A DNA stretch of 61,114 nt, the filler included, from a candidate division TA06 bacterium SM23_40 (GTDB lineage: Bacteria > LJUI01 > SM1-40): assembly GCA_001303705.1 (NCBI GenBank). It is 4 parts of 4 records of this genome, joined end to end, with 100 filler letters (N's around TTAATTAATTAA, not from the genome) between each part and the next. Parts side by side here need not be neighbours in the genome. Positions count along the whole stretch, not along the records: positions 18,374 to 32,692 come from LJUI01000057.1; 3 more parts are not named here. One strand, written 5' to 3'. Each line of letters starts with the position of its first letter. Positions within the stretch are counted from its first letter, which is position 1. The notes below the pieces were generated by a model. It was not told where the DNA came from. It did no database searches and saw only the letters and a list, made by a program, of their open reading frames with translations. Positions 14,856 through 32,792 of this stretch are shown here, in pieces. A program made the translations under genes and the position numbers.

Positions 14856-16886
14856 CTACCGCAACAACACCATCCGCTTCGTCTCCGTGAACTCCCCGGT
14901 CTCCAAACGGCAGAAGTAGATGCCCGAGCCAACCTCCCTCCCTCGCCCGTCGCGCCCGTCCCAGATCACTCGATGCGCTCCCGTCTCAACCGTCCCCCGC
15001 ACGAGCTCCCGCACCAGCGCGCCCCGGATGTCATACACCGCCAGCGTGACGGGCCTCTGCGCGCTCAGCGAGTAGGAGATCGTCGTCGACGACCAGAACG
15101 GATTAGGACGATTCTGCGCCAGATACTCCGCACCTGACCTCAGCTCATCTTCATCGTCAGCCACTCCCACCACATCGGTCACCGTGATGTCCGTCTGTTC
15201 GGTATCGGCAAGAGCCGGGACGCCGACATCTGCGGCGACGAACGTCACCGTGTACAGACCAGCCTGCTGATATGTGGGGGTCCACTCGAAGACGCCACTC
15301 ACCGAATCCAACACCGCTCCTGTCGGAAGATCGGGTGAAAAAAACCAGATACTATCACGATCAGGATCGGTCGCCTCCAGCGTGAACGTCAGATGCTGAT
15401 TCTCGTCCACCGTAGTATCCGGCTGATCGATCAGGTCCGGCGGGCGGTTCACATCGCCAACCGTAATATCCGTCTGTTCCGTGTCGGCAAGGGCCGGCGC
15501 GCCAAGGTCTGCTGCGATGAACGTTACGGTATGAAGACCTGATTGAGCATACGTGGGTGTCCACTCGAAGACACCAGTCACCGCGTCCAGCGCAGCTCCC
15601 CCAGGTAGATCGGGAGCGGAGAAGACGATGCTATCACCATCCGGATCGCTCGCCTCCAGTGTGAACGTCAAATGCTGATTCTCCGCCACTGAGGTGTCGG
15701 GCTGATCTGTAAGATCAGGCGGATGGTTCCCCGCGACGAAACCGTCGGCGTCTGTTTTGATCAGGTATACATCTTCGCTGCCCGCACCGAAGGAATCGGT
15801 GTACCCAGCGATGACGTACCCACCATCGTCCGTCTGCCCCACCCAATACCCATAGTCGTGCTCTGAGCCGCCATAGGTGCGCGTCCACACCGTGTCGCCT
15901 ACATCGTCAGTCTTCACCAGATACACATCTTCTAGGCCAGCGCCGAAGGATCTCGTGTACCCGGCGACAATATACCCCCCATCGGCCGTCTGCTCTGCCG
16001 AGTACCCATAATCATAGCCCGGACCGCCGTACGTGCGCGTCCACACCGTGTCGCCCGCCCCATCCGTCTTTATCAGATACACATCGTAGCCGCCCGCGCC
16101 GAACGATCTGGTGTATCCGGCGATGATGTATCCCCCATCTATCGTCTGCTCAACCGAATTGCCCTGATCCCAATCTGCGCCGCCATAGGTGCGTGTCCAC
16201 ACCGTGTCGCCCGCACTATCCGTCTTGATCAGATAGACATCGTCACCGCCTACCCCGAAAGAATCCGTATATCCAACGATGATATATCCGTCATCCGCAG
16301 TCCGCTCAATCGAATATCCATAATCATAGGCTGGACCGCCATAGGTGCGCCTCCACACCGTATCACCCGCGGCATCCGTCTTGACCAGATACACATCCCC
16401 GTTGCCTGCACCGTAGGAATCGGTATATCCAGCAATGATGTATCCCGAATCGGCAGTCTGCTCGACTGCGTACGCATAATCATAGCCTGAGCCCCCGTAC
16501 GCGCCCGCCCACAAAGTGTCCCCCGCTCCGTCAGTCTTCATCAGAAGAGCATTCCAGCCCGCTGCGCCGAAGGACCAGGTGACTCCAGCGACGATGTATC
16601 CCGAATCGGCAGTCTGCTGAACCGAATACCCATAATCGTAGTCTACGCCGCCGTACGTGCGCGTCCACTGCGAGATGCCCAACGTGTCGGTCTTGATGAG
16701 ATATATGTCGGCCTCACCGACACCGAATGACTGGGTCTGTCCGACGACAACATACCCCCCTTCCTCCGTCTGTACTACTGAACGTCCCCGATCAAGGTCG
16801 GGGCCGCCGTAGGTCCGGTGGAATGAGATCTGAGCGCTCGCAGTCAGCGGGACAAGCAAGGCGAGTAAGACCATTAGCCTTCGCAT
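14856..16886 (-). CDS. Secreted beta-propeller repeat protein with two Ig-like domains and a FlgD-like C-terminal domain
   Basis: Signal peptide; about 7 repeats RTYGG..D.G.SV.QT.DGGYIIAG; duplicated NxPPDL..FEWTPTY Ig modules; LAQNRPNPF..WDGRD..GIYFCRL tail. Confidence 0.85.
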   Translation of the reverse strand: MRRLMVLLALLVPLTASAQISFHRTYGGPDLDRGRSVVQTEEGGYVVVGQTQSFGVGEADIYLIKTDTLGISQWTRTYGGVDYDYGYSVQQTADSGYIVAGVTWSFGAAGWNALLMKTDGAGDTLWAGAYGGSGYDYAYAVEQTADSGYIIAGYTDSYGAGNGDVYLVKTDAAGDTVWRRTYGGPAYDYGYSIERTADDGYIIVGYTDSFGVGGDDVYLIKTDSAGDTVWTRTYGGADWDQGNSVEQTIDGGYIIAGYTRSFGAGGYDVYLIKTDGAGDTVWTRTYGGPGYDYGYSAEQTADGGYIVAGYTRSFGAGLEDVYLVKTDDVGDTVWTRTYGGSEHDYGYWVGQTDDGGYVIAGYTDSFGAGSEDVYLIKTDADGFVAGNHPPDLTDQPDTSVAENQHLTFTLEASDPDGDSIVFSAPDLPGGAALDAVTGVFEWTPTYAQSGLHTVTFIAADLGAPALADTEQTDITVGDVNRPPDLIDQPDTTVDENQHLTFTLEATDPDRDSIWFFSPDLPTGAVLDSVSGVFEWTPTYQQAGLYTVTFVAADVGVPALADTEQTDITVTDVVGVADDEDELRSGAEYLAQNRPNPFWSSTTISYSLSAQRPVTLAVYDIRGALVRELVRGTVETGAHRVIWDGRDGRGREVGSGIYFCRLETGEFTETKRMVLLR

Positions 16887-17360
16887 GGCTGCCATCTCCT
16901 TCGGTTGTGCCTCTTTGTCACACCCGAGCACCGCACCGGGGCGATCCACCTCGTCATAGCGTCCCCGCAGGCCTTCGTATCACTACAATAGGTGCCGCTG
17001 CCCTGCTCCCCAAGAGGACCCCCCGTTATCATGCTCAGAATAGCATGTCTCGATGGAGTTGTCGAGTAATATCAGCTCGAAAAAATCACCCGCCTCATTT
17101 GCGCGCGCTTCCCGGACGCTGGTCTCACCAGTGAAAGTGGAGCCCCCAAATCCGCATTCGAGAGACCCTACCCCGCCTCCTCGTATCTGGTAGTCTAGCA
17201 CAATCTCTGGTGAGGCTCCACTACCGCAGGTTCGTATCATTTGACCCCATGAGACATATCTCGTATGTTAGCTCATCGTCTAGAGTGGATCCTTTCTCAT
17301 GGAAGTCATGATGGGACTGCCGGAAAAGCCTCGATCTGCTGCCCCCAGGGTCATATGATA

Positions 17361-18273: not shown

Positions 18274-18373
18274 NNNNNNNNNNNNNNNNNNNNNNNNNNN
18301 NNNNNNNNNNNNNNNNNTTAATTAATTAANNNNNNNNNNNNNNNNNNNNNNNNNNNNNNNNNNNNNNNNNNNN
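18274..18373. other. Artificial contig spacer
   Basis: N44-TTAATTAATTAA-N44, with stops in all six frames. Confidence 0.97.
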
Positions 18374-18530
18374 CCAGCCAGTACCCGGCACCCACTCCCA
18401 CAAAGAGGCTCTCGGCGAACTTGTACACGGGATTGTCGCGGTACAGAAAGCTGAAGATCGCGAGAGTGAGAAAAGCTCCGACCCATATCCCGACCGTCTC
18501 AACCCACCCGAGTCCGCCAATCGTCTCCAC
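18374..18530 (-). CDS. Cassette gene D3, membrane protein (5' part only, truncated)
   Basis: IWVGAFLTLAIFSFLYRDNPVYKFAESLFVGVGAGY, paralog of D1/D2. GTG start inferred. Confidence 0.85.
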
Positions 18531-18543
18531 GGCAGCGTCCCCT

Positions 18544-19377
18544 CTAGGCCTCGCTCTCTCTCCTCCGGGAGAGAAGGTAGCTGATGTTCCCCAGGACAAC
18601 GAACAGAATGATGAGGAGATGGACTGCAGACTGCGCATCCATTCCACGCGCCGCCGTGCCGGGCTGCTCGATCAAGATCTCGTACTCCGCTGCTCCCGCC
18701 ATGCCCCCGAGCAGGCCCAGCAGCTGACCGGATTCCATGTACGGATAGAAGTTCGGCGCGCTCACCGCTGTCACGCCCGCACCCATCGGGACGTCGAAGC
18801 GGCTCTGCACTTGCTGCACCCACTCCCGCGTTCCGGGAGTCCCGGCTGAGATACTCACAAGAAAAGCAATATCGGCGAAGTTTGAGATTTTCCGCATGAG
18901 CGGCAGCTCCTCAACCGGCGTGAGGTAGAAGTCGCGGGGGAAGAGGCCGGGGATCGAGGTCCCCATCTCCACCATCGCATTCGGGCCGCCGGTTGTGTAC
19001 CCCAGATTGACGTAGTCGACTCCGTACTCCTTCCCGTACTCTGCTGCGACCTGCTGGTGGGCGGCTTCGACGAGCGGCGGCCCCTCCGGCCAGAGGCAGA
19101 CGGAGATGACACGCAGGTTGCGGCTGAAGCAGTGGCGGTACACCGCCAGAGTCATCGGCTGGAGTTCCGGCATCCCGTCCGGGCTGTAGTCACCGGCGAG
19201 CATTACGATCGAACCCTCGGGCAGGCCCTCGATCTCGTCAAACAGACCCCGTGTCGATCGCCCAACCGCCACCGGCAGGCGGAAGGGGAAGAGGAACGGC
19301 AGGACAACGCATATCGCGACGAAGAGGAAGACGACGCGTCGGTCGATGCTCTGGAGTCGTTCGAAGAATCGTATCAT
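18544..19377 (-). CDS. Cassette gene C3, two-TM protein with a large soluble alpha/beta domain
   Basis: IDRRVVFLF..DYSPDGMPELQPM..GVDYVNLGY..GLLGGMAGAAEYE..MDAQSAVHL; paralog of C1/C2. Confidence 0.85.
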   Translation of the reverse strand: MIRFFERLQSIDRRVVFLFVAICVVLPFLFPFRLPVAVGRSTRGLFDEIEGLPEGSIVMLAGDYSPDGMPELQPMTLAVYRHCFSRNLRVISVCLWPEGPPLVEAAHQQVAAEYGKEYGVDYVNLGYTTGGPNAMVEMGTSIPGLFPRDFYLTPVEELPLMRKISNFADIAFLVSISAGTPGTREWVQQVQSRFDVPMGAGVTAVSAPNFYPYMESGQLLGLLGGMAGAAEYEILIEQPGTAARGMDAQSAVHLLIILFVVLGNISYLLSRRRESEA

Positions 19378-19394
19378 GAGAGGGCCGATCCTCC

Positions 19395-20036
19395 CTATTC
19401 TCCGCCCAGGTATGCCCGTTCGATCCCGAGTATGATGCGCAGACCCATCGCCATGACCCCCATGGCAGCTCCCATCATGATCCCGCGGAATCCGATCATA
19501 TTCGGCACATTCATGATCCACTCCGTCACCACCGGCAGCTGCAGGGCTGTGGGCAGTCCTCTCGTCAACAGGCTACCCAGCGGTACCCGTCCCAGCATTA
19601 CGATGACCGCTGCGAGCAGCAGGAGCGTGGCCTCCCAGTTGCGGACGCGAAAGGCGCGGTACGCCGCCGAGGCGATGAAGAACGCGAGAAGGGCGAACAT
19701 CGTCATATCGAGGTGGACTTTCAGGTGCCGGAACAGGTAGTTGAATGGTGTGCCCTCTCCCACCCCCCAGACCAGACCGGTGATCATCATGGCGAACATG
19801 CCGGCCAGGAGTACAATGCTGTACGGCCAGCCGGCAGTGCGGCGAGGGATCCTCTCAAAGAGATGGATGCGCAGGAGATTACCGATCCCGAGGACGATGG
19901 AGGCGGCGATAACGATGACGCTCCACTGGCGGAGCTCAGACGCGGCGTTGGCCACCAGCGGATGGGGCACGAAGAAGTCGACGAGCTGGACGAACCCGGC
20001 CACGAAGGTGATGATCAGAGGGATCTCTCTACGCAT
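19395..20036 (-). CDS. Cassette gene B3, multi-pass membrane protein
   Basis: MRREIPL..TMFALLAFFIASAAYRAFR..MLGRVP..RIILGIERAYLG; paralog of B1/B2. Confidence 0.88.
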   Translation of the reverse strand: MRREIPLIITFVAGFVQLVDFFVPHPLVANAASELRQWSVIVIAASIVLGIGNLLRIHLFERIPRRTAGWPYSIVLLAGMFAMMITGLVWGVGEGTPFNYLFRHLKVHLDMTMFALLAFFIASAAYRAFRVRNWEATLLLLAAVIVMLGRVPLGSLLTRGLPTALQLPVVTEWIMNVPNMIGFRGIMMGAAMGVMAMGLRIILGIERAYLGGE

Positions 20037-20054
20037 TATACTCGTTCATCCTCT

Positions 20055-20159
20055 CGCTTCACGCTTCACGCTTCACGCTTCACGCTTCACGCTTCACGCT
20101 TCACGCTTCACGCTTCACGCTTCACGCTTCACGCCTCACGCTTCACGCTTCACGCCTCA
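20055..20159. repeat. Heptamer tandem repeat (CGCTTCA)x15
   Basis: 15 copies; copies 12 and 15 are CGCCTCA. Lies between genes A3 and B3. Confidence 0.95.
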
Positions 20160-20288
20160 CGCGTTTCTGCACGCCGCCCGATTCTCTGTACTTCATCTGT
20201 TCGGCGCGCCGCCAGTCCCTTCGTGGCACAGACGCCCGCACCAGTCACCCAATAGAAGAAAAACCGGCGTGGCAGCCGGAACGCGACT

Positions 20289-21560
20289 CTATTGCCCCGC
20301 CACATAGAAGAAGTTTCTGAAAATGTCGGCGATGGCTGTGAGCGGAGCGACCCCGAATGCCACCGCAGTCTCCATGATCACTCCGACGATGATAGCGACC
20401 ATGACGAACGCCTTCCCCAGATCCGAGCCCTTGAGACTCCCGAGCAGCTTCGGCTCGCGGGACAGGTATGCGCTCGCGGCATAGAGCTCCTCCCCGATCA
20501 GGGTGTAGTCGCATGCGGTGATGAAGAACGGCAGCTGGGATACCATCGCCGTGCCCGCGACCTGGATCGCCCCAGCTTCGAACCCGGTCTCCGCGAGCAG
20601 AAGCGACTCTGCCCAGAATGCCCCCATATAGAGGTTGGCCGCCGGCCTCTCACGGAGCATGATGCCGTTCACCGCGGCGGCGAACGCAAACTGGGCGTCG
20701 GAGAGATATCGTATATTGTCAGGATTGTACGCGTCGGGTTTGCCGACCGATAGATATGCCTCCTTCACAACCTCCTCGGCTGCGGACATGACGACAGCGC
20801 GGGCCGTGGGCACGAGGAGCGGGCTTTCGTATCTGGCCGTGATCTTGGCCACATGGGTCAAGATGGAGAGACTGGCCACGGTCATGATGTTGTCGATCTC
20901 ACCGATCCCCGGAACATAGAGAACCGGTTTCCCCATCTCTGTGGCGCGTCCGATCGCCTCCTCGACCGCGGTCAGGCCGGGGATGCGACGGACGAAGAGC
21001 TCCTTCCCCCGCCGCGCCTGAGCGATGTATGTGAGCACGAAGCTGAAGAAGAGTACGAGGATGATGAACATGTTGAGCCTTCTTGTGCGGAACCAGTTGG
21101 CGCGGGAGGCCGCCGGCCCGCTCGGCTCAGAGTCGACAGTCTGCATGTCATCCTTCGCCCGCACAATGTAATAGTACGTCGTCCCATCGGTAGCCGTAGT
21201 GTCGACGTACGACTCAACGCCCGGCGGAACCTCGTCGATCAGTAGATACCCTCTGCCCGGCTGTGTTGAACGAAGGATATCATACCCCACGACATCGTCA
21301 TCGCCCGCACCATCATCGCGCGACCGCGTCCAGCTGATGGCGATCTGCCTTCCCCCATCACCCGGCACATCGTGAGCGACAACTGAGGTCGCCGGTCCGG
21401 GAGGCCGAGTAGCGATGAAGGCCTCGAGAAACGCCGATTCGCCGAGGGGCTCCTCACCCGGCTGGAGCGGAGCACCTGCCGCGCTCCCTCCGATGTCGAT
21501 CCCTGCCGCAAGGGAGGCGATGAGCATGACGATGATAGAAATCGATGAATGCACGCTCAT
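20289..21560 (-). CDS. Cassette gene A3: FN3 domain, TM, DUF6754-like domain, TM
   Basis: Signal-like N-terminus; FN3 (ISW..YDILRS..YYYIVRA); RRIPGL..GRATEMGKP..QLPFFITACDYTLIGEELYAASAYL. Start after AGGAG. Confidence 0.85.
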   Translation of the reverse strand: MSVHSSISIIVMLIASLAAGIDIGGSAAGAPLQPGEEPLGESAFLEAFIATRPPGPATSVVAHDVPGDGGRQIAISWTRSRDDGAGDDDVVGYDILRSTQPGRGYLLIDEVPPGVESYVDTTATDGTTYYYIVRAKDDMQTVDSEPSGPAASRANWFRTRRLNMFIILVLFFSFVLTYIAQARRGKELFVRRIPGLTAVEEAIGRATEMGKPVLYVPGIGEIDNIMTVASLSILTHVAKITARYESPLLVPTARAVVMSAAEEVVKEAYLSVGKPDAYNPDNIRYLSDAQFAFAAAVNGIMLRERPAANLYMGAFWAESLLLAETGFEAGAIQVAGTAMVSQLPFFITACDYTLIGEELYAASAYLSREPKLLGSLKGSDLGKAFVMVAIIVGVIMETAVAFGVAPLTAIADIFRNFFYVAGQ

Positions 21561-21777
21561 CCGAGCTCCTGTAGGTCGGCCACTCTGTCTGGCATACGTA
21601 TTCCCCGGTGCGCTGAGACCCAACTCCGAGCCGCACCGTATCATATCCTCTGCGATCCTGTCAAGGCCCGCCTGTATCAATTTGCCCGGGGCCGCGTCGC
21701 CGGATCAGCGTCCCTGGCGCCGACGATGTCCGGCCGCCCGCCAGAGGCTCACCACGCCATAGCCCCCTCTCAATTCA

Positions 21778-22419
21778 TCAGCGGATGAGCCCCAGCCAGT
21801 CCCGGAACAGAAACTGCATGCGCCCGATCAGGAGTGAGACGCGGGCCATCACGGTATATCCGAATGAGGCGCCGAATCCCACCATGAGGAACCAGATCCC
21901 GATCCTGCTCGCTCCACCCAGCACTCCCTTGTGTTCCCGCGAAAAGAAGAAGTAGAGAAGCGAGCAGATGAGGCCGATGAGAAGGAGCGCGGCCGTGATC
22001 GAGACGGTCGGGGCCATGGCAGCGTGAACCTGGGCCAGCACGCGCGCCTGCATGTAGGAGGGGATAGCGAGGCCGGCGTACCCTCCGACGTAGAACGCGA
22101 TGGCATATCGGCTGATCCAGGCGAACCGGGGAAAGAACCTCGTGAACATGAGAAGTCCGAGCACGCCCGGAACAAGGGGGAGGAGCACTCCACCTCTCAG
22201 CACCGGGACGAGGAGCTGCCCTACGATATTGGCGTTCCAGTAGATGAGGGCCCAGTATCCTGCCGACACGCCGACGAGCAGGTGCTCGGCGAACTTGTAG
22301 AATGGATTGTCCCGGTACAGGAACGAATAGATGCACAGGGTCAAGATCGCCCCCACCCAGATGGCGAACCGTTCAGGAGTGAACGGCCAGAACCCTGTCC
22401 ACAGAGAGACTTCGTTCAT
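21778..22419 (-). CDS. Cassette gene D2, multi-pass membrane protein
   Basis: SFLYRDNPFYKFAEHLLVG..FLMVGFGASFGYTVMARVSLLIGR. Start overlaps the C2 stop. Confidence 0.88.
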   Translation of the reverse strand: MNEVSLWTGFWPFTPERFAIWVGAILTLCIYSFLYRDNPFYKFAEHLLVGVSAGYWALIYWNANIVGQLLVPVLRGGVLLPLVPGVLGLLMFTRFFPRFAWISRYAIAFYVGGYAGLAIPSYMQARVLAQVHAAMAPTVSITAALLLIGLICSLLYFFFSREHKGVLGGASRIGIWFLMVGFGASFGYTVMARVSLLIGRMQFLFRDWLGLIR

Positions 22420-23390
22420 CAGTCTGTACCCTTCCCCCGCGCCGACTCTGCGAGCTCCTCTGCCCGGCGCCTTCTCCTGAGCGTGAAGAATGCAGCGTTT
22501 CCCAGCACTATGAATGCAATAATGGCAGCATGGACGATGGACTGTGAATCCATCCCGATCGATGCCTCCCGGAACCGCCTCTCGAGCGCGCGCAGCTGCG
22601 CCTCGGGGAGCGCACGGCGCCTCGCCTCGGCGATCCCCAGCTCTTCCTCGAGGTCGTTCACCAGCTTCTCGTATTCCGAGGCTCCCTTCATCCCCCCGAG
22701 CAGACCGATGGCCTGTCCGGTATCGAGATAGGGATAAAAGTTGAGCGCCTGAACCGCAGTCACCCCGAGCGCCACTTGCTGCCGGTAGGGCGTATTCGCG
22801 TACAGCACCCAGAACTCGGCAAGTGCGGTGGCGGCGATCGAGACGACGAGATCGATGTCATTGTAGGTATGCACTTCCTCGAGGAGCTCGATCTCCCCGA
22901 TGGGCACACCGCCGTAGTCACGTGGATAGACGCCGTGCAGATCCCGACCGATGGCCAGCATCACGGCCGACGCCCCTGCCATATATCCGAGATAGACGTA
23001 GTCTTCCTGGTTCACCTTTCCATAATCGGCGGCTACCTCGCTCATCGCGATCCGGCCCAGGGCCGTCCCGTCCGGGTGGTTGGCGACGCCGATGACGACA
23101 AGATCGCGGACGAAGCAGTGCCGGAGCACGGCTCTTACCATGGGATACATCTCGGGCATCGTCGACGGGCCGAAATCGAATGAGATGAGTACCACCGACC
23201 CTGGAGGGAGCGTTTCGACGTAGTCGAAGACCTGCCGCACCGGCTCGGTGACGTTGGTGGGCAGGCCAAGGGGGAAGAAGAACGGAATGACCACGGCGAG
23301 GGCGATGAGCAGATAGATGATCCGCCGGTCCAAGGCCTGGAGGTGCTCTTGCCATGTTCTCTTCTGTTTCATTTCCCCCCTCCCGTTCAT
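22419..23390 (-). CDS. Cassette gene C2
   Basis: LDRRIIYLL..DFGPSTMPEMYPM..GLLGGMKGASEYE..MDSQSIVH. Start 23390 (ATGA overlap with B2) or 23372. Confidence 0.85.
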   Translation of the reverse strand: MNGRGEMKQKRTWQEHLQALDRRIIYLLIALAVVIPFFFPLGLPTNVTEPVRQVFDYVETLPPGSVVLISFDFGPSTMPEMYPMVRAVLRHCFVRDLVVIGVANHPDGTALGRIAMSEVAADYGKVNQEDYVYLGYMAGASAVMLAIGRDLHGVYPRDYGGVPIGEIELLEEVHTYNDIDLVVSIAATALAEFWVLYANTPYRQQVALGVTAVQALNFYPYLDTGQAIGLLGGMKGASEYEKLVNDLEEELGIAEARRRALPEAQLRALERRFREASIGMDSQSIVHAAIIAFIVLGNAAFFTLRRRRRAEELAESARGKGTD

Positions 23391-24043
23391 TTCCCCCCTC
23401 CAAGGTACGTACGTTCGATGCCGAGGATCACCTTGAGCGCCGTCGAGATCGATCCCAGGCCGACCCCGATCATGATGCCCCGCTTGGCCGCGAGGTTGGG
23501 CACCGTCAGTATCCAGTCCGTGAGCGCGGGAATCCCCACCTGCTCCGGCAGCCAGGACGTGAGCAGATGCCCGAGGGGCACCCTGCCGAGCATCACCATG
23601 ACCGCGGCCACGAGCAGGAGCGTCGCCTCCGGTGTTCTGGCCCGGAAGGTGCGGAACGCAGCTGAGGCGATGAAGAAGGCAAGCAGCGAGAACATGGTCG
23701 AGTCCATGGGGACCTGGATGTTCTGGAAGATCCACATGAACGGTGTCCCCTCCTGCAATCCCCTCCCGTCCAGATCCCATGGCCTGCCGGCAAGGATCAT
23801 CGCAAACAGTCCTATGATGACCACGGCGCTGTACCACCAACCCGTCTTGCGCTGGCGAAGCTTGGTGACGTGGAGCCGCGTGATGCTGAAGATCCCCAGC
23901 AACATCGCGAAAGTATAGATGAGTCGGAGCCAGGCGAGCAACGTCTGATTCGCGGTCTCCATGGCAGGGTGAGGCGTGAAGTACAGCGATGTCCCGAAGA
24001 GCCCGGCGAAGAAGGCGATCCCCAGTGGGATTTGACGTTGCAT
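23387..24043 (-). CDS. Cassette gene B2
   Basis: MQRQIPL..STMFSLLAFFIASAAFR..VPNLAAKRGIMIGVGLG. Confidence 0.88.
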   Translation of the reverse strand: MQRQIPLGIAFFAGLFGTSLYFTPHPAMETANQTLLAWLRLIYTFAMLLGIFSITRLHVTKLRQRKTGWWYSAVVIIGLFAMILAGRPWDLDGRGLQEGTPFMWIFQNIQVPMDSTMFSLLAFFIASAAFRTFRARTPEATLLLVAAVMVMLGRVPLGHLLTSWLPEQVGIPALTDWILTVPNLAAKRGIMIGVGLGSISTALKVILGIERTYLGGGK

Positions 24044-24066
24044 GAGATGTCTCCGCGGCAGACTGG

Positions 24067-25311
24067 CTACCGTGCAGCGAACAGCCCGCGGAACCAGTCG
24101 AAGCGTGCAACTGAGAGCACTGCTCCGGTGATCGCCAGTACGACGAGAATCAGCTTAGCCCAATCCTGCCCCTTGAGGCTCCCGAGGAGGAGCGGCTCGC
24201 GCGAGAGGTAGGCACTCGCCGCATACAGTTCCTCGCCTATAAGTGTATAGTCGCACGCTGTGATGAAGAATGGAAGCTGGGCAACTGCGTCCGTGCCCGC
24301 AATCTGGATCGCGCCCGTCGATGCCCCTGTCTCCGCGAGGATGAGCGACTCCGCATAGAAATAGCCCATGAAGAAGTTCGTCGCCGGCCGATCCCGCACC
24401 ATGATGCCGTCGACGGCAGCGGTATAGCCAAACTGGCTATTCGTCACATAGAAGACCATCTCCTCCCGGTATGCGTCCGGTCTCCCGACCTCGAGAAACG
24501 CCTCCTTGACCACTTCCTGCTCTACCGCCATCACCATCGGATCGTAACAGGGAACGACGAGCTTTGAACCGTACTCTGCGGCCCTCCTCGCCACCCTTCC
24601 CAGGATGTTGATCGCCGCGAGCGTGGCAACGTCGTCCATCGGATTGAGCCCGGAGACGTAAAGGATCGGCTTTCCCAGCTCGGTCGCCCGCCCAACCGCC
24701 TCGTCCACTGCCTCCAGACCGGCGATCTTGCGAATGAAGAGCTCTGTCCCGCGCCTGGCGCGGGAGATGAACCAGATAAGCAGCGCGGCGAAGCCGACTA
24801 TACTGACGAGTACGCTCGTGCGGCCGAAGTTGAACCACTGCGGCCCGGCGAGGGCGCTCGTACCCCCGGCACCACGGCTCGCCACGTCGCCGGCCATCGC
24901 GGTGACGAAGTAGGTGTACGGCGTTCCGTCCTCGACAGGCGAGTCGACATAGGTATCGACGCCAGGCCCCAGGGCAGCGAGCAGCATGGGCTCGCCCCCT
25001 GAGGTGTCGACGCGCGAGATGACATACCCGGTTACGGTGCCGAGCCCCGCTCCGTCATCCGGAGAGAGGTCCCATCTCAATGTGATCGCTCCTCCCCCAT
25101 CGTTTGGGGTGTCGGAGGCGCGGATGTTGGCTGGAGGCGCGGGGGAGACGGCGGAGAGATCAAGGGGAGTTGCGGGACCGACCGCCACCTCGGCCCGGGC
25201 GTGCGGGATGAGGAGAACGCCTACAAGAGGTATGAGAAGGACGAGCGAGCGCGCCGACCCGGCCGCACGGAGCACTGCCGCGAGGAGTGCGGGGCGGCGA
25301 GGGTTGACCAT
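24067..25311 (-). CDS. Cassette gene A2b: FN3 plus DUF6754-like
   Basis: DTPNDGGGAITLRW FN3 and the conserved C-terminal domain. Start uncertain (25311-25509). Confidence 0.85.
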   Translation of the reverse strand: MVNPRRPALLAAVLRAAGSARSLVLLIPLVGVLLIPHARAEVAVGPATPLDLSAVSPAPPANIRASDTPNDGGGAITLRWDLSPDDGAGLGTVTGYVISRVDTSGGEPMLLAALGPGVDTYVDSPVEDGTPYTYFVTAMAGDVASRGAGGTSALAGPQWFNFGRTSVLVSIVGFAALLIWFISRARRGTELFIRKIAGLEAVDEAVGRATELGKPILYVSGLNPMDDVATLAAINILGRVARRAAEYGSKLVVPCYDPMVMAVEQEVVKEAFLEVGRPDAYREEMVFYVTNSQFGYTAAVDGIMVRDRPATNFFMGYFYAESLILAETGASTGAIQIAGTDAVAQLPFFITACDYTLIGEELYAASAYLSREPLLLGSLKGQDWAKLILVVLAITGAVLSVARFDWFRGLFAAR

Positions 25312-25474
25312 GTCACGTACCGCAGCTTCCGGTGCTATGCACCGCAGGGCGGGCGGAATACGGCTCGCCACCCTCGGCGACAATGCCGCGAGGCCGGGCC
25401 CGGCAGGAAAGCCTGCTGCCCTACAGAGTCGACCATCCATATGGAGTCCGTTCAGAGATGGGGCAGGCGATCGC

Positions 25475-26749
25475 TCACCCCGCGGAGAAGAGCCGGGAGA
25501 ATCCTGCAATCCCGAGGGTGGTGGCCAGAATACCCGCAGCCATGAGCGCCGCGATCAGGAGTTTCGCCATATCCTGACCCTTGAGGCTTCCGAGCGCGAG
25601 CGGCTCTCGCGAGAGGTAAGCACTCGCCGCATACAGCTCCTCGCCGATGAGTGTGTAGTCGCAGGCGGCAATGAAGAAGGGGAGCTGCGCCACGGCATCC
25701 GTGCCGGAGATCTGGATCGCACCCACGCTGTTGCCGGTCTCGGCGAGGATGAGCGACTCCGCCCAGAACATGCCGAGGAGGAAGATCGTCGCCGGACGCT
25801 CGCGCACCATGATGCCGTCAACCGCGGAGACATAGCCGAACTGGCTGTAGGTGATGTAGCTGATGTCGTTCGCGTCGTATGCGTCAGGTCGCCCGGCCTC
25901 AGTATAGGCCTCGCGGACGATCTCCTGGGCGACCGGCATCACGACAGGATCAGTGCAGGGGACGATGAGGCGACTCTCATAATCAGCGGCCCGGCGAGCC
26001 ACCCGGGAGAGGATATTGAGCGAGGCCAGGGTGGCGACATCACTGATGGTGCTCAATCCCGGGACGTACAGGATCGGTTTTCCCATCTCAGTCGCGCGCC
26101 CAAGCGCCTCGTCAACCGCCTCGAGCCCGGCGATGCGTCGGACGTAGAGATCCCGCCCCCGGCGCGCAACGGTGATGAAGCCTGCGAGCAGAGAGGTGTA
26201 GACGACGACGCCGACGAGTACGTTAACCCTCCCCCGGTGAAAGAGCTGGGCCGAGGCCAGGGCAGGGCCGGACGGCTGCGACATCGGAGTAGTGAATTCC
26301 CGGGCGCCTGCCTGCCCCACGGCGCGGACTCTGTACGCAAAGGAGCGTCCATCCTCAGCCGCACCGTCGGTGAACTGAGCGAGGCCACCGGATACCGTGC
26401 CCACGAGTTCCCACTCCCCATCAGGGTGCTCAGCACGCCATATCTCGTACGAGGTGATGGAGAGGGCGGGACGAATCTCAGAAGGAAGCTCTTCCCACCT
26501 CACGGTGATGCTTCCTCCTGCGTCGTTCGGCGTGTCGTACGCAGAGACTCCAGCAGGTGGCGGGATGTCCGCGGAAAATGCTTCCGGGGGAGAGGCGGCA
26601 TCGCCGAGACCTCCCTCTCCGGGCGCCTGTCCGAGGAGAGGTGACGATGCGAATAACAGAGCGACAAGGGCAATATAGAACGAGGCCAGGACCCGGCCTC
26701 GGCATGGTATATACTGTGCTCGGTCCAAACAGGGGCTCTCTCTTCTCAT
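25475..26749 (-). CDS. Cassette gene A2a: FN3 plus DUF6754-like
   Basis: YDTPNDAGGSITVRW; GRATEMGKPILY; AACDYTLIGEELYAASAYL. Confidence 0.87.
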   Translation of the reverse strand: MRRESPCLDRAQYIPCRGRVLASFYIALVALLFASSPLLGQAPGEGGLGDAASPPEAFSADIPPPAGVSAYDTPNDAGGSITVRWEELPSEIRPALSITSYEIWRAEHPDGEWELVGTVSGGLAQFTDGAAEDGRSFAYRVRAVGQAGAREFTTPMSQPSGPALASAQLFHRGRVNVLVGVVVYTSLLAGFITVARRGRDLYVRRIAGLEAVDEALGRATEMGKPILYVPGLSTISDVATLASLNILSRVARRAADYESRLIVPCTDPVVMPVAQEIVREAYTEAGRPDAYDANDISYITYSQFGYVSAVDGIMVRERPATIFLLGMFWAESLILAETGNSVGAIQISGTDAVAQLPFFIAACDYTLIGEELYAASAYLSREPLALGSLKGQDMAKLLIAALMAAGILATTLGIAGFSRLFSAG

Positions 26750-26904
26750 CCCATTGATGCTCCCGCCATTTCCCCTCGCCTATCGACAAGCTACTACGAG
26801 CATACCCGCCGGCTCCTCCACCAGTCATGCGCACATCGCTCAGGCATCCCAGGACCCGGTCGACGATCCCCAGCCGGATCATCGTCCTTCCATCTACTCG
26901 ATGA

Positions 26905-27582
26905 TTACTCGATGATCCCCAGCCAGTCGCTCAGCAAAAAGTAGACACGGCCGATCAGGAGCGAGATACGGGCCATCACCGTATATCCGAACGACGCGCC
27001 GAACCCGATCATGAGGAAGACGATCCCGATTCGCGATGTCACACCAAGGACACCTCGATGCGGCCGGGAGAAGAAGAAGTAACTGAGGGTGCAGAGCACC
27101 CCCACAGCAGCAAGAGGGACGCTCATCAGCCAGAGTCCGTTCCAGATCGTCGGCTCTGCGAGAAGCGTCCGCCATGCCTGAGTCGGGATGAACGAGACCA
27201 TCGTCCCCTGCATCTGCTGGATGATCCGGGTGAGCATCGTTCGAGGAATGGAGAGTCCGGCTCCCGACCCCACATAGAATGCGATCGACCAGCGGCTGAG
27301 CCACCCACCACGGGGGAAGAAGCGGAGGAAGAAGAATATCCCCAGGATGCCGGGGATGATGAGGATGAAGTTCCCGTGCTGGCCTTCGGTGACCGCAGCC
27401 CACAGGGGTCTGGCCAGGTTGGGCAGCACCGAGTTATGGTAATAGATGACGAGGTAGTACGCGGCCGAGACCCCGACGAACAGATGCTCTGCCGCCTTGT
27501 ACACCGGGTTGTCGCGATAGAGGAACGAGTAGATACAGAATGTCAGGAGCGCAGCCAGCCAGACCCAGAGATCAGTCGACAT
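26905..27582 (-). CDS. Cassette gene D1
   Basis: WLAALLTFCIYSFLYRDNPVYK..FGASFGYTVMARISLLIGR. Confidence 0.88.
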   Translation of the reverse strand: MSTDLWVWLAALLTFCIYSFLYRDNPVYKAAEHLFVGVSAAYYLVIYYHNSVLPNLARPLWAAVTEGQHGNFILIIPGILGIFFFLRFFPRGGWLSRWSIAFYVGSGAGLSIPRTMLTRIIQQMQGTMVSFIPTQAWRTLLAEPTIWNGLWLMSVPLAAVGVLCTLSYFFFSRPHRGVLGVTSRIGIVFLMIGFGASFGYTVMARISLLIGRVYFLLSDWLGIIE

Positions 27583-27586
27583 TGCC

Positions 27587-28429
27587 CTATCCTCTCCTCC
27601 CTCCCCCGGCAGCCCCGCGCCGCTGGACGAAGAAGGCGACGTTTCCGATGATGACGAAGACTATGATGATCAAGTGGGCGATCGATTGCCCATCCATCCC
27701 GATTATCGCCCTCCCCGGTACACCAATGAGGTACTCGTACTCGGCAGCACCCTTGAGCCCACCGATCAGGCCGAAGAGCTGGCCTGTCTGAAGAAACGGG
27801 TAGTAGTCGGTCGCCGACACCGCGGTGCAGCCCGCCGCCACCGGCTCCTGATAGGGGCCGTTGGCGTAGGCAACCCAGGCCTCGGTGATGGCGCTCGCGG
27901 CGAACGTAACGATGAGAGAGATATCATCGTAGGTATGGATATCTGCGATCATAGGGATCTCGGAGAGCGGGGTGCCGAAGTAGTCTTCGGGGAATGCCCG
28001 GTGGATGTCCTGACCCATCTGGTCGATGACCATGGCGATAGCCGGCTTGAACCCGAGGAAGACGTAATCGATGCCGTTCACCTTGCCGTACTCCTCGGCC
28101 GCCTCGGACGTGGCGTCGAGCGCCAGACCGGGGCCAGCCTGGTGGAGCGTCATCGTGATCACCTTCAGATCTTTGGAGAAGCAATGGCGGAGCACGGCGA
28201 GCGTCATGGGCTGGAGCTCAGGCATCGCCGCTGGATCGTAATCGATCGAGATGAGTACCGGCGGGTCGTCCGGTGTGAGCGTCTCTATCCGATCATAGAC
28301 ATCCTTGACGCGGCGCGTCACGTAAGTGGGCAGGCGTAGCGGGAATATGAACGGAATGAGGACGGCCAGCGCGATACAGAGAAAGATAATCCGTCTATCG
28401 ATGTGCATCAGACGTTCGAACAATCCCAT
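27587..28429 (-). CDS. Cassette gene C1
   Basis: IDRRIIFL..DYDPAAMPELQPM..GLIGGLKGAAEYE..MDGQSIAHL. Confidence 0.88.
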   Translation of the reverse strand: MGLFERLMHIDRRIIFLCIALAVLIPFIFPLRLPTYVTRRVKDVYDRIETLTPDDPPVLISIDYDPAAMPELQPMTLAVLRHCFSKDLKVITMTLHQAGPGLALDATSEAAEEYGKVNGIDYVFLGFKPAIAMVIDQMGQDIHRAFPEDYFGTPLSEIPMIADIHTYDDISLIVTFAASAITEAWVAYANGPYQEPVAAGCTAVSATDYYPFLQTGQLFGLIGGLKGAAEYEYLIGVPGRAIIGMDGQSIAHLIIIVFVIIGNVAFFVQRRGAAGGGRRG

Positions 28430-28458
28430 CGAATGTTATCCTCCCGATCTCGCTCCCA

Positions 28459-29082
28459 TCAGTCGCCGCCGCCGATCCAGGAGCGCTCGATGCCGAGGAT
28501 GATCTTCACCGCGGTCGATATCATCCCCAGCCCGACCCCTATCATGATCCCTCGCTTCGCCGCGAGGTTCGGCACCTCGAGTATCCACTCCGTGATCCGG
28601 GGAAATCCTGCCCATATGCTCTGGCCGATGGGAACCCGGCCGAGCATGACAATGCCCGCAGCGAGGAGCAAGAGTGTCGCCTCCAGGGTGCGGGCACGGA
28701 AGGCACGGTACGCCGCCGAGGCAATATAGAATGCGAGAAGCGAGAACATCGTCCCCTCAAGGGGCACCTGGACATAGTTGTACAATTTCATGAACAGGCC
28801 TTCCTGCCCGATGCCGCCGAAAAATCCCACAGCGAGCGTGAGGACGAGGCCTCCCATAGCGATTAAGCTGTACCACCACCCTGAGGCGCGTCTCCTGATC
28901 CTTGCCCAGTGGACTCTGATCAGGCTCCCGGTGCCGAGGACGAGCGCGAACGTGAAGACGATCAGGTACCATGTCCTGATCGTCTCACCATAGACCAGTG
29001 AAACACGATGCGGGATGAAGTACTGAATCGCCATCGTTACGCCGAGGAAGAAGCAGATGGCGAGCGGAACCTGACGCCGCAC
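28459..29082 (-). CDS. Cassette gene B1
   Basis: GTG start after AAGGAG; same motifs as B2/B3. Confidence 0.88.
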   Translation of the reverse strand: MRRQVPLAICFFLGVTMAIQYFIPHRVSLVYGETIRTWYLIVFTFALVLGTGSLIRVHWARIRRRASGWWYSLIAMGGLVLTLAVGFFGGIGQEGLFMKLYNYVQVPLEGTMFSLLAFYIASAAYRAFRARTLEATLLLLAAGIVMLGRVPIGQSIWAGFPRITEWILEVPNLAAKRGIMIGVGLGMISTAVKIILGIERSWIGGGD

Positions 29083-29124
29083 GTAATCATCTCCTTTCGA
29101 TTGCAGATATCGAGGCCACGCCGC

Positions 29125-30393
29125 CTATCCGGCGGCGAAGAGGCCGACGAAGCGTGGCCACCCAAAGGTCGTGAAGATCATGCCCACAATGATGAGGGTA
29201 GCGATGAGGAGCTTGGCCAGATCCTGTCCCTTCAGGCTTCCGAGCTGAAGCGGCTCGCGCGACAGATAGGCGCTGGCCGCGTACAATTCTTCTCCGATGA
29301 GTGTGTAGTCGCACGCAGCGATGAAAAACGGGAGCTGGGCGACTGCGTCGGTGCCGGCGATCTGTATCGCACCGATGCCCGCCCCCGTCTCGGCCAGAAT
29401 GAGCGACTCGGCCCAGAACATCCCGAGGAAGAAGTTGGTCGCCGGCCGATCCCGCAGCATAATGCCGTCGACCGCTGCCACATATCCGAACTGACTGAAG
29501 GTGACGTAGTAGATGTCGTCCTCACGGTAGGCATCCGGATGTCCCATATCCGTGTAGGCCTCGCGGACGATCTCCTGGCAGACAGGCATCACCACTGGAT
29601 TTCGATTGGGGATGACGATCCGGGTCTCATACTCGGCAGCCTTCCGCGCAACCCGGCTCAGGATGTTGAGCGAAGCGATCGTCGCCACGTCCTGGATCAC
29701 GCTCAGGCCGGGCACATAGAGGATCGGCTTCCCCATCTCCGTCGCCCGCCCGATCGCCTCGTCCACGGCCTCCAACCCCGCGATCCTGCGGACATAGAGT
29801 TCCTTGCCCCCCTTTGCCTGCTGGATGAATAAGACGAGAAATGCGGTAAACAGGACGACCCCCACCAGGACATTCACTCTACCGCGGTGGAAGAGCTGGC
29901 CGCTCGACCTGACTGGCGCTGTCGGATCGGCGTCGGCGGTCAATCCGTCGTGCACGCGGACGACGTAGCTGTATTCGACCCCATCATACACTGAAGCGTC
30001 CTCGAACGCCGTCGTCCCCGCGACAACGCTCCCCACGGAGACGAGCGCAGGATCGAGCGATGAGCTCCGCAGTATCTCATATGTGACCGGACGCCTCTCT
30101 GCCTCTGCGGACGAAGGCGACCAGGTGACCGTAATACTCCCACCTGCGTCGTTCGGGGTATCAAATGCCCGTACATTGCTGGCCGGCTCAGGGGGAGCCA
30201 ATCCCTCGAGCACCGACTCTCCTATCTGGGCGCCGGCGAGAGAGAAAAGAAAGAGGCCGCCGATGGTGAGAAGGAGCAGTGCCGATACCGCTCCTCGACC
30301 GCCATCAGACGGCCCTCGTGACATCTCCCCCGCTTCCGTACAGACAGGGGTCCCTCCAGAATTGCTGTCCACGCCTTCTCGTTGTCGAATCAT
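29125..30393 (-). CDS. Cassette gene A1: FN3 plus DUF6754-like
   Basis: FDTPNDAGGSITVTW FN3, a TM, then the conserved C-terminal domain. Start uncertain (30324 or 30393). Confidence 0.87.
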   Translation of the reverse strand: MIRQREGVDSNSGGTPVCTEAGEMSRGPSDGGRGAVSALLLLTIGGLFLFSLAGAQIGESVLEGLAPPEPASNVRAFDTPNDAGGSITVTWSPSSAEAERRPVTYEILRSSSLDPALVSVGSVVAGTTAFEDASVYDGVEYSYVVRVHDGLTADADPTAPVRSSGQLFHRGRVNVLVGVVLFTAFLVLFIQQAKGGKELYVRRIAGLEAVDEAIGRATEMGKPILYVPGLSVIQDVATIASLNILSRVARKAAEYETRIVIPNRNPVVMPVCQEIVREAYTDMGHPDAYREDDIYYVTFSQFGYVAAVDGIMLRDRPATNFFLGMFWAESLILAETGAGIGAIQIAGTDAVAQLPFFIAACDYTLIGEELYAASAYLSREPLQLGSLKGQDLAKLLIATLIIVGMIFTTFGWPRFVGLFAAG

Positions 30394-30468
30394 AGTTGCG
30401 TGTGTCTAGCCCGGATACTCTCCTCCTCTGATGACAGTGGCCGGGGAGGCCGAACACAAGGCCTCACT

Positions 30469-30497
30469 CCTATACCACACCCCCACTCCACCGTCAA
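30469..30497 (-). promoter_or_regulatory. Candidate sigma70 promoter at the head of the cassette array
   Basis: Minus strand TTGACG, 17-bp spacer ending TGG, then TATAGG (imperfect -10 with TG extension). Confidence 0.5.
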
Positions 30498-30522
30498 GCG
30501 AAAAATCCCGCGCCGACGAAGA

Positions 30523-30700
30523 TAACCTTCAGCACCTGACAACGTCCCTGACTGCCGGACCCTCGCAGAATGGTCCTCAGAGGAGAACAGGTGTTGGTAA
30601 CCTTCAAAACCCAGATACGTGCCCGGAGTAACCTACAGAACCTACCAACGTCCCCCGGGTGACGGGGTAACCTTCTGAACCTACCAACGTCCCCGGGTGA
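30523..30700. repeat. Cluster of ~28-bp GTAACCTTCTGAACCTACCAACGTCCCC-type repeats
   Basis: Good copies at 30628 and 30667; degenerate copies at 30523 and 30597. Confidence 0.85.
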
Positions 30701-32170
30701 TTAGCGCAGAAGAGCCATGCGCTTCGTGTCGGTGAACTCGCCTGTCTCGAGGCGGCAGAAGTAGATACCGCTCGCCACCTTCCGTCCTCGCTGGTCCCGT
30801 CCGTCCCACACAACGCTGTGGAAGCCGGCGGGAACCGTCTCCTGCGCCAGAGTGCGCACCAGAGCGCCCCGGATGTCATAGACCGCCACTTTCACCGGAG
30901 TCCCGGCGCTCAGCGAGTAGCAGATCGTCGTGGAGGAACCGAACGGGTTGGGACGGTTCTGCGCGAGATACTGTGCCACCGCGGGCAGCTCATCCTCACC
31001 TTCGGAAACGCCGACCATGCCATCGGCGTCGGTCTTGATCAGATAGACATCATCCTCGACATCGCCCGGGGGCCAGGTGTATCCGACGACGATGTATCCC
31101 CCATCGAGAGTCTGAGCGACCGAATATCCTCCATCCCACGCCAGGCCGGCGTACGCACGCGTCCACAGCGTATCGCCCGCTGAGTCGGTCCTAATCAGGT
31201 AGAGGTCCTCGATGCCCGTGGGGAAGGGCTCGCCGTATCCGGTGATAATGTATCCTCCGTCGTTTGTCTGTGCGACCGAATAGCCTCCATCTGCATACGG
31301 GCCGCCATACGTACGCGTCCAGATTGTATCGCCGACACCGTCGGTTTTAACCAGATAGACATCCCTATCGCCGGCTCCATACGACTCGGTCTCTCCGACG
31401 ATGATATATCCCCCATCGCTCGTCTGGGCGACCGAGAAGCCCCCCTCGTAGTTTGGGCCGCCATAGGTGCGCGTCCACATGGTATCGCCAAGGGAGTCAG
31501 TCTTGATCACATAGATGTCCCAGGACCCCGCGCCGAAGGTCGTCGTGCCCCCGGCCACGATGTATCCTTCATCGAGAGTTTGCGCGACCGACTCGCCAGA
31601 GTCGTAACTGGAACCGCCGTACGTGCGCGTCCAGACCGTATCGCCATTCGCGTCAACCTTGATCAGGACTACGTCGCTAAGTTCTGCGCCGTAGGATTCG
31701 GTGTACCCCGTGACGACGAATCCGCCATCGAGCGTCGGCGCGACCGACCTGCCCGTCTCCGTCTGCGGGCCGCCGTACGGGCGTGTCCACACCGTGTGGC
31801 CATCGGCATCCGTCCTGACCAGGTATATATCGGTCTGGCCCTCACCGAAAGACGTTGTGTTACCAGCGATGATATATCCCCCATCGAGCGTCAGGGCAAC
31901 CGACCTGCCTCCATCGGTCTGGGGGCCGCCAAAAGTCGTCGACCATGATGTGGACCCCCATGCATCAGTCTTGATCAGCCAGAGGTCCGACTGGCCGGCC
32001 CCGTAGGACCGAGTCGTTCCGGCGACGATATATCCCCCGTCGGGCGTCTGGGCGACCGACCGGCCCAGATCACTGGAGGCGCCACCATAGGTGCGCTCGA
32101 ACGTGATCTGAGCAGCGGCGGTCAACGGCACCAGCAGAGCGAGCACGAACGCCAAGGTTCTCATAGCCAT
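30701..32170 (-). CDS. Secreted beta-propeller repeat protein with a FlgD-like C-terminal domain
   Basis: Paralog of 14856..16886 lacking the two Ig modules; signal peptide ending LTAAAQ. Confidence 0.85.
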   Translation of the reverse strand: MAMRTLAFVLALLVPLTAAAQITFERTYGGASSDLGRSVAQTPDGGYIVAGTTRSYGAGQSDLWLIKTDAWGSTSWSTTFGGPQTDGGRSVALTLDGGYIIAGNTTSFGEGQTDIYLVRTDADGHTVWTRPYGGPQTETGRSVAPTLDGGFVVTGYTESYGAELSDVVLIKVDANGDTVWTRTYGGSSYDSGESVAQTLDEGYIVAGGTTTFGAGSWDIYVIKTDSLGDTMWTRTYGGPNYEGGFSVAQTSDGGYIIVGETESYGAGDRDVYLVKTDGVGDTIWTRTYGGPYADGGYSVAQTNDGGYIITGYGEPFPTGIEDLYLIRTDSAGDTLWTRAYAGLAWDGGYSVAQTLDGGYIVVGYTWPPGDVEDDVYLIKTDADGMVGVSEGEDELPAVAQYLAQNRPNPFGSSTTICYSLSAGTPVKVAVYDIRGALVRTLAQETVPAGFHSVVWDGRDQRGRKVASGIYFCRLETGEFTDTKRMALLR

Positions 32171-32692: not shown

Positions 32693-32792
32693 NNNNNNNN
32701 NNNNNNNNNNNNNNNNNNNNNNNNNNNNNNNNNNNNTTAATTAATTAANNNNNNNNNNNNNNNNNNNNNNNNNNNNNNNNNNNNNNNNNNNN
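32693..32792. other. Artificial contig spacer
   Basis: N44-TTAATTAATTAA-N44. Confidence 0.97.

Follow-up and report, generated by a model that had tools for sequence, protein, structure and literature searches.

A triplicated four-gene membrane cassette in a candidate division TA06 bacterium and its possible energisation by an actin-fold ATPase encoded elsewhere

Gene content of the cassette locus

Candidate division TA06 bacterium SM23_40 (GCA_001303705.1) carries a run of 13 minus-strand genes that form three consecutive copies of a four-gene membrane cassette, here called A-B-C-D. The run lies in a 61,114-nt stretch of DNA (the window) made up of four contigs joined by N44-TTAATTAATTAA-N44 linkers at 18274-18373, 32693-32792 and 46918-47017. 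The neighbourhood of genes on opposite sides of a linker cannot be assumed. The cassette contig (LJUI01000057.1) corresponds to positions 18374-32692, and its cassette genes follow the order A1-B1-C1-D1 / A2a-A2b-B2-C2-D2 / A3-B3-C3-D3.

Unit 1 comprises A1 (29125-30324; 399 aa; match to the DUF6754 family, PF20539, at E 8e-122), B1 (28459-29082; 207 aa), C1 (27587-28429; 280 aa) and D1 (26905-27582; 225 aa). B1 is a polytopic protein of an unnamed family with 46-53% identity to B2 and B3, C1 consists of a Rossmann-like, probably periplasmic domain between two transmembrane (TM) helices, and D1 is again polytopic and of an unnamed family, with no Pfam or Protein Data Bank (PDB) match. Unit 2 is preceded by an extra A subunit, A2a (25475-26749; 424 aa; PF20539 E 2e-117), which is closest to A1 (61% identity). 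It is followed by A2b, the A of this unit (24067-25311; 414 aa from the ATG at 25311; PF20539 E 1e-120), B2 (23387-24043; 218 aa; 53% identity to B1), C2 (22419-23372; 317 aa; 49% identity to C1) and D2 (21778-22419; 213 aa; 51% identity to D1). Unit 3 consists of A3 (20289-21560; 423 aa; PF20539 E 3e-119), B3 (19395-20036; 213 aa; 46-49% identity to B1 and B2), C3 (18544-19377; 277 aa; 43-47% identity to C1 and C2) and the first 52 codons of D3 (18375-18530), which share 68-76% identity with the D1 and D2 N-termini and stop at the contig end. For A1, the start at 30324 is more likely than that at 30393, since a 100%-identical database protein (P0001) has 399 aa.

BLASTP comparisons among the paralogues gave 47-61% identity for A (E 1e-111 to 1e-157), 46-53% for B (E 1e-63 to 1e-72), 43-49% for C (E 1e-70 to 1e-93) and 51% for D1 and D2 (E 2e-71). 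With identities of 43-61% and E values from 1e-63 to 1e-157, the triplication is both real and old. An initial annotation of the window had described the 13 co-oriented genes as three diverged units and had assigned an architecture to each subunit. The coordinates and BLASTP identities bear out the former, and the A1 and C1 models, the fibronectin type III (FN3) match and the hydrophobic segments of B and D bear out the latter. Its statement that several genes are translationally coupled holds for a part of the junctions only. C1 and D1 are separated by 4 nt and the start of D2 overlaps the stop of C2 by 1 nt, whereas the remaining 10 of the 12 junctions are not tight (six at 13-42 nt and four at 155-252 nt).

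Contig boundaries and independent assemblies

The window was compared with contigs from four other public runs, which sampled marine-sediment and estuary metagenomes. In run X2, a single 10,509-nt contig spans 20150-30654 with 7 differences from the window, and the three-unit arrangement is reproduced in independent metagenome assemblies. One contig from X2 and one from X5 extend past 18374, with D1-like 3′ sequence about 290 nt further on. The last D gene had been regarded as truncated; because the contig ends at a linker and the X2 and X5 contigs run past 18374, D3 is complete in nature and its truncation is an assembly artefact.

The A3-B3 gap is unusually long, compared with A-B gaps of only about 60-90 nt in the nearest relatives, and is filled by a 7-bp tandem repeat at 20055-20162 (unit CGCTTCA, 15.4 copies, 97% matches) that stops 18 nt ahead of the start codon of B3. 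Immediately after the A3 stop codon lies a terminator-like hairpin (20279-20264, minus strand). In all four other runs the contigs are interrupted at or close to the repeat, and the depth bin there is inflated; the repeat could be variable in length, with an effect on expression of B3-C3-D3.

The A subunit and its DUF6754 domain

The initial annotation had noted a resemblance of the C-terminal domain of A to DUF6754, and this was confirmed in all four A proteins. They match PF20539 at E 1e-117 to 1e-122 (392-406 bits, well over the curated cut-off of 27 bits) and cover positions 2-3 to 250-256 of the 257 in the model. In the AlphaFold model of A1, built with an 89-row alignment (mean predicted local distance difference test, pLDDT, 85), an N-terminal hydrophobic helix is followed by an FN3 domain (residues 49-140), a TM helix (147-171), an alpha/beta domain with six strand-helix units in alternation (184-355) and a second TM helix (358-386). 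The N-terminal helix has an Ala-x-Ala-like end in the model and is read as a signal peptide. Residues 42-142 match a solved FN3 domain with Z 13.7 and a root-mean-square deviation of 2.0 over 96 residues, the A profile matches titin FN3 at E 1e-30, and a PDB profile search gave FN3 relatives alone. The FN3 assignment is therefore firm. Both fold-search lists for the A1 model were filled by FN3 matches and hold little information on the fold of DUF6754. In our reading the alpha/beta (DUF6754) domain is predicted to be cytoplasmic, as Lys and Arg residues follow the second helix in keeping with the positive-inside rule.

Conservation differs sharply between the two parts of the protein. Among the four A copies of the window, the FN3 domains are 30-40% identical, as opposed to 62-82% for the DUF6754 domains. 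An alignment of 89 A sequences across phyla contains 63 invariant columns, mostly at strand ends and helix starts, and the invariant motifs include R-A-T-E, A-E-S-L, Q-x-P-F-F and C-D-Y-T-x-I-G-E-E. Residues C338, D339, E345 and E346 of A are invariant. Other lineages have an ectodomain made up of several FN3 domains, PQQ-type beta-propellers or unassigned domains, in proteins of up to 1475 aa, and DUF6754 is 56-67% identical across lineages despite this exchange of ectodomains. There are also A proteins of 260 aa, which are too short for an FN3 ectodomain (P0065, P0069, P0080 and P0103). By these comparisons, A appears variable outside and nearly frozen inside.

The B, C and D subunits

B and D each contain several hydrophobic segments and are polytopic, and conserved acidic or polar residues occur in or near the hydrophobic stretches of D (N25 and E32) and also of A. 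The model of C1 (pLDDT 93) has the order TM helix, Rossmann-like domain, TM helix, and its fold matches form a flat list of generic Rossmann proteins with Z from 9.7 down to 7.9. A basic N-terminus and a very basic C-terminal tail suggest that both ends of C are inside and that the Rossmann-like domain is outward-facing. Among 95 C sequences, a near-invariant Asp/x-Arg-Arg followed by hydrophobic residues precedes the first helix (residues 11-13 of C1, approximately 28391-28399). This Arg-Arg may be a mere positive-inside signal or a twin-arginine-like export motif for a domain that is folded before export.

No family was matched by B, C or D in Pfam (searched at E<=0.01 with 10 of the 13 cassette proteins) or in NCBIfam (searched at E<=0.1 with nine, namely A1 and all B, C and D proteins other than D3), and NCBIfam gave nothing above chance for any of the nine. 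PDB profile searches found nothing for B and D and two chance-level matches for C (E 0.35). Weak-match Pfam scans, made sequence by sequence, revealed no consistent family among 103 B, 94 D and 95 C sequences. In the ESM Atlas, B finds only unnamed clusters and lacks a model, and the structure neighbours of D are only unnamed clusters of the same fold (template-modelling scores 0.82-0.87). The possibility that A and C, and B and D, are ancient duplicated pairs was ruled out by hhalign, which returned probabilities of 0.7% and 1.4%; as judged by sequence, A, B, C and D represent four distinct families. A pattern search of all 13 cassette proteins found no Walker A motif, and a search of Pfam, NCBIfam, PDB profiles and weak matches found no characterised complex, in both respects as the initial annotation had it.

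Conserved gene order and the age of the units

The A protein has at least 8000 database relatives, and the named ones come from WOR-3, TA06, Stahlbacteria, Coatesbacteria and Edwardsbacteria. A motif scan of one genome per species returned at least 593 encoding stretches, and the locus counts that follow rest on the best 80 of these. At 67 of the 80 loci there is at least one complete A-B-C-D set in this order, in lineages comprising WOR-3 and the Zixi-, Ignavi-, Pori-, Eisen-, Latesci-, Stahl-, Coates-, Edwards- and Fermentibacteria. The pattern is a single ABCD at 42 loci, ABCDABCD at 12 and three ABCD units at 7, and there are six variants; among those with extra or partial genes, three loci have two complete units and one has three. 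Six further loci carry AB or ABC, and every one of them stops at a contig end. The other seven carry A only: two lie at contig ends, and five (L003, L027, L040, L043 and L051) are genuine orphans, followed by 1.5-10 kb of sequence devoid of B, C or D. Because the order is kept in 67 of 80 loci across many phyla, the earlier proposal that the four genes are an obligate set is supported, and the tandem units at other loci, together with the triplicate in the window, likewise agree with its view of an expansion into paralogous units. The addition of a single A, as with A2a in the window and the AABCD arrangement at locus L012, reflects the same tendency as the orphan A loci.

Sampled more densely, the class of an Ignavibacteria bin (G003) has DUF6754 in 121 of 121 genomes, mostly with 5 matches per genome (range 2-10), and DUF6754 was above cut-off in none of 14 control genomes. 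A FastTree phylogeny of concatenated B, C and D from 98 cassettes (local supports; D3 mostly missing from the data) separated unit 3 from units 1 and 2 at the level of deep clades (support 99). Zixibacteria and Ignavibacteria occur in each of the two clades, and in comparison with the nearest relatives (L006, L007, L011 and L026), unit 3 groups with their second unit and unit 2 with their first. Since the deep clades are shared across phyla, at least two cassette types are older than the phyla, and this points to functional differences that have been maintained.

An ATPase and its partner linked to cassettes in other genomes

Clustering of flanking open reading frames revealed no universal neighbour at the cassette loci. 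One pair of genes recurs across phyla: the first encodes a protein of about 600 aa with a full-length match to PF13941 (MutL) at E ~1e-128, and the second a 375-aa protein without a Pfam family above threshold. By tblastn, the ATPase gene lies within 10 kb of a cassette at 14 of the 80 loci, and the partner follows it in 11 of these 14; the pair is usually directly upstream of A on the same strand. Five cassette genomes from five phyla all contain the ATPase (single, and split into pieces in G005) and exactly one partner each. In the phylum of G003, 149 of 151 genomes have the ATPase, mostly in one copy, and in at least 39 genomes of this phylum it is found no more than 5.5 kb from a DUF6754 gene (coordinates compared by eye, among the matches listed, 150 of 584). 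The ATPase was above cut-off in none of the 14 control genomes.

The ATPase carries the sequences DCGSTTTK and DIGGATTD, which we take to be the two ASKHA phosphate motifs. A MutL domain is present on 106 of 107 longer relatives of the partner, most of which have about 1000 aa, the length of a MutL-partner fusion, and these fusions imply that the two proteins act as one unit. Below threshold, the N-terminus of the partner matches RnfC_N in 10 of 11 members (best E 3e-5), Biotin_lipoyl in 9 of 11 and NQRA_N in 6 of 11; at the sequence level these barrel matches would indicate only a generic hybrid barrel. Lipoylation of the partner was judged unlikely, as the barrel hairpin has no invariant Lys. 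An apparent partner-A fusion of 707 aa (P0250), which keeps the A signal peptide and FN3 domain and stops inside DUF6754, was not used as evidence; it may be a rare fusion or an artefact of read-through or gene calling.

Apart from this pair, the cassettes are flanked by housekeeping or hydrolase genes that are specific to lineages (among them lipoate ligase, TldD, GH57 and DUF4388), and no mutase is among the recurrent or adjacent neighbours annotated at the loci. In the nearest relatives of the window, the second cassette is immediately followed by a gene for a lipoate-protein ligase (L006, 17167-18027; L011, 17382-18188). At 10-11 Poribacteria loci (among L028-L080, approximately 13250-15630), genes for a xylose-isomerase-like TIM-barrel protein and a sulfatase follow D on the same strand. 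This synteny is weak evidence of function because it is confined to one lineage.

The cassette system had been called ATPase-free. The ATPase pair is encoded outside the cassette in other genomes, and its ties to cassettes by adjacency and co-occurrence speak against that description for the system as a whole. For the same reason, energisation in trans by ATP is more likely than the secondary transporter or channel that the initial annotation had envisaged.

Proposed mechanism and alternative explanations

We tentatively propose, as a real possibility short of a firm conclusion, that each A-B-C-D unit is a hetero-oligomeric inner-membrane module of a widespread ATP-dependent translocation system. 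B and D, two unrelated polytopic proteins, would form the membrane core, and C would set its Rossmann-like domain on the outer face with a helix anchor at each end. A would join a variable exported domain (FN3 here) by one helix to the highly conserved cytoplasmic DUF6754, a conserved face of which would serve as docking or client site for an engine in the cytoplasm, itself the product of single-copy genes located elsewhere in the genome. The engine would consist of the GlmL/MutL-type actin-fold (ASKHA) ATPase and the 375-aa partner with its hybrid-barrel N-terminus, and one engine would serve several paralogous, interchangeable membrane modules of differing specificity. The targets of GlmL/MutL-type and related reactivase ATPases are small cofactor-binding domains with a Rossmann-like fold, so that the Rossmann-like DUF6754 is, by analogy, a plausible client. 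Modular ATP-driven translocation is favoured by the combination of two polytopic subunits, an outward alpha/beta domain, an A subunit that passes from variable to frozen, several old paralogous sets and a single ATPase unit; from these we infer the assembly of A-D, the action of the ATPase pair on DUF6754 and transport as the work done. A more specific version sees in the cassettes the membrane-embedded half of a primary active transporter, or group translocator, of a new class that is run by the actin-fold ATPase, with one ATPase-partner unit cycling among several substrate-specific A-B-C-D gates and acting on the invariant cytoplasmic DUF6754. We regard this version as rather unlikely. The invariant Cys/Asp/Glu cluster of DUF6754 might take part in a relay like that of EIIB of the phosphotransferase system (PTS).

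Several observations weigh against ATP-dependent translocation. Neither the ATPase nor the partner gene was found in the window by tblastn, and the link is carried over from relatives; at 66 of the 80 loci there is no ATPase gene within 10 kb, and the genomes G001 and G004 have the ATPase, the partner and the cassettes scattered far from one another. As both families occur nearly throughout the sampled groups, the contrast between presence and absence rests on 14 controls. Of the two genomes among 151 that have no ATPase, one (G058) has DUF6754. Pfam, NCBIfam, PDB profile and weak-match scans found no homology to any transporter family, so that transport as a function rests on architecture. 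FN3 and beta-propeller ectodomains are typical protein-binding scaffolds, and a mechanical or scaffolding role fits as well as uptake. The neighbours are heterogeneous and give no hint of a substrate.

Such a mechanical role could be that of a mechanotransmission or envelope-remodelling machine, in which ATP hydrolysis by the MutL-type protein would move A, and the ectodomain would work outside, for example by activating or positioning extracytoplasmic enzymes, with no solute crossing the membrane. FtsEX and MacB follow this logic, and the analogy draws strength from the way A couples an exported domain of protein-binding type (FN3 in the window, and in other lineages a PQQ beta-propeller or a large domain) to the conserved cytoplasmic domain by one helix, as well as from the five orphan A loci, which suggest that A is exchangeable or addable. 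However, no subunit matched an FtsX or MacB family in Pfam or, for B and D, in the weak-match scans, two polytopic subunits and a second outward-facing domain in C exceed the needs of a lever, and the 260-aa A proteins have no room for an FN3 ectodomain; we consider this explanation somewhat improbable. Still less probable is a self-sufficient, ATPase-free secondary transporter or channel formed by A-D and driven by an ion gradient. It would account for the lack of a nucleotide-binding motif and of an ATPase gene in the cassette or window, for the 66 loci without a nearby ATPase gene and for the conserved acidic residues in or near the hydrophobic stretches of D and A. Yet an ATPase is adjacent at 14 of 80 loci where well under one would be expected (an estimate for one 1.8-kb gene in a 2-6 Mb genome), the ATPase pair co-occurs in all five cassette genomes checked and the ATPase is found almost throughout the phylum of G003, and conservation in the system is highest in a soluble cytoplasmic domain, an unusual feature for a gradient-driven carrier.

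The attachment of variable ectodomains to a conserved cytoplasmic domain would also suit a transmembrane sensing or signalling complex, in which the outward A and C domains detect ligands or envelope states and signal to DUF6754 and the ATPase pair. Helix-turn-helix domains (PF12844 and PF01381) appear in the precomputed Pfam lists of some ATPase-partner fusion relatives (P0310, P0327, P0328 and P0334), as might be expected of such a complex. We think it distinctly unlikely, given that Pfam and NCBIfam revealed no output domain (kinase, cyclase or receiver) in any subunit, that no regulator is among the conserved neighbours, and that units with two polytopic subunits each, numbering about five per genome and near-universal in whole classes, bear more resemblance to housekeeping machinery. 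The sub-threshold RnfC_N and NQRA_N matches of the partner raise the further idea of an Rnf/Nqr-like ion-translocating redox complex, with B and D as NqrD/E, C as NqrC, A as NqrF and the partner as NqrA/RnfC. NqrD and NqrE are subunits of about 200 aa with six helices, which B and D resemble in size, and the FAD domain of NqrF is one of the 50 listed fold matches of C (Z 8.0). That match, however, sits in a flat list of generic Rossmann folds, the barrel of the partner matches Biotin_lipoyl just as well, the 25 most frequent weak families of 103 B or 94 D sequences do not include Rnf-Nqr, and no Cys or His that could hold a cofactor is invariant in B, C or D. A redox complex of this kind is very improbable.

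Other features of the window

A 39-bp unit is present in two copies at 30624-30700, between A1 and an upstream gene associated with the type IX secretion system (T9SS). In this repeat region depth rises 10-fold, and many loose contig ends fall at 30655-30697 in three or four runs, which implies a dispersed repeat or a variable junction just upstream of the cassette. The T9SS-type gene (30701-32170, minus strand) and another at 14856-16949 (minus strand) encode secreted repeat proteins that have a C-terminal sorting domain for type IX secretion or an FlgD-Ig-like tail; one of the proteins carries SBBP/delta-60 repeats. These proteins suggest an organism like those of the Fibrobacteres-Chlorobi-Bacteroidetes (FCB) group. 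On the third contig, three Mur ligase genes stand in a row as part of a cell-wall synthesis cluster (32810-38449, plus strand). Rfam had no match on the cassette contig, and a scan for promoters and terminators gave counts not above those of shuffled sequence. No RNA dataset was among the public runs listed as containing the sequence.

Significance

The A-B-C-D unit is a four-protein system found in every sampled genome of one class, usually in about five copies, and in about ten named phyla, and it has no name, paper or solved relative. Between phyla, identity in its core domain is maintained at about 50-60%. No relevant paper on DUF6754 or on a membrane system with a PF13941 ATPase was found in a search whose coverage lay outside subscription journals and supplementary files. 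The present analysis contributes the contig-end explanation of D3, the support from independent assemblies, the old paralogue types, the domain-wise contrast in conservation and the copy numbers that set one engine against many modules. If the cassettes prove to be ATP-driven translocators with an actin-fold ATPase, they would represent a new energising principle for membrane transport, a fourth type of engine beside the ABC, P-type and rotary ATPases. They would also account for a set of genes labelled "hypothetical" in many uncultured lineages that inhabit sediments, groundwater and sponges, and would correct the routine mislabelling of the linked ATPase as "glutamate mutase L."

Comparison with known systems

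Among catalogued families, DUF6754 is the one to which the cassette can be directly related. The A proteins of the window match the whole PF20539 model, and their relatives are often annotated as "fibronectin type III domain-containing protein." The PF20539 entry has no function and covers A alone, leaving B, C and D without any family. The cassette-linked ATPase matches GlmL/MutL of B12-dependent glutamate mutase end to end (PF13941, with TIGR01319 relatives) and is labelled accordingly in the sources. It differs from GlmL/MutL in being about 150 aa longer than the 450-position model, in being paired or fused with the 375-aa partner and in its location beside membrane cassettes.

By analogy, the mannose-type PTS also has four specific components (EIIA-D) in many paralogous sets that share the single-copy general cytoplasmic proteins EI and HPr. 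A point of likeness is the membrane-tethered Rossmann-like domain of A, which has an invariant Cys (C338 in A1); phosphotransfer by the cassette would be pure speculation. No PTS family was found for the cassette proteins at the Pfam and NCBIfam thresholds given above, among the top weak matches or in the scan of the partner.

The ATP-binding cassette (ABC) importers and the energy-coupling factor (ECF) transporters offer an analogy in layout, as they too combine two polytopic subunits, an outward alpha/beta domain and a cytoplasmic ATPase. The resemblance does not extend to the engine: the cassette has no ABC domain or Walker A motif, and the linked ATPase has an actin fold. ABC_tran was not matched in Pfam or NCBIfam, and no ABC, ECF or binding-protein family was matched in Pfam by the cassette proteins; the B sequences have sub-threshold matches to the ABC-permease families TMD0_ABC (24 of 103, best E 8e-5) and ABC2_membrane_3 (3 of 103). 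One ECF energising module, like one EI/HPr pair, serves many specific components, and a single ATPase-partner unit may likewise serve the several A-B-C-D modules of a cell.

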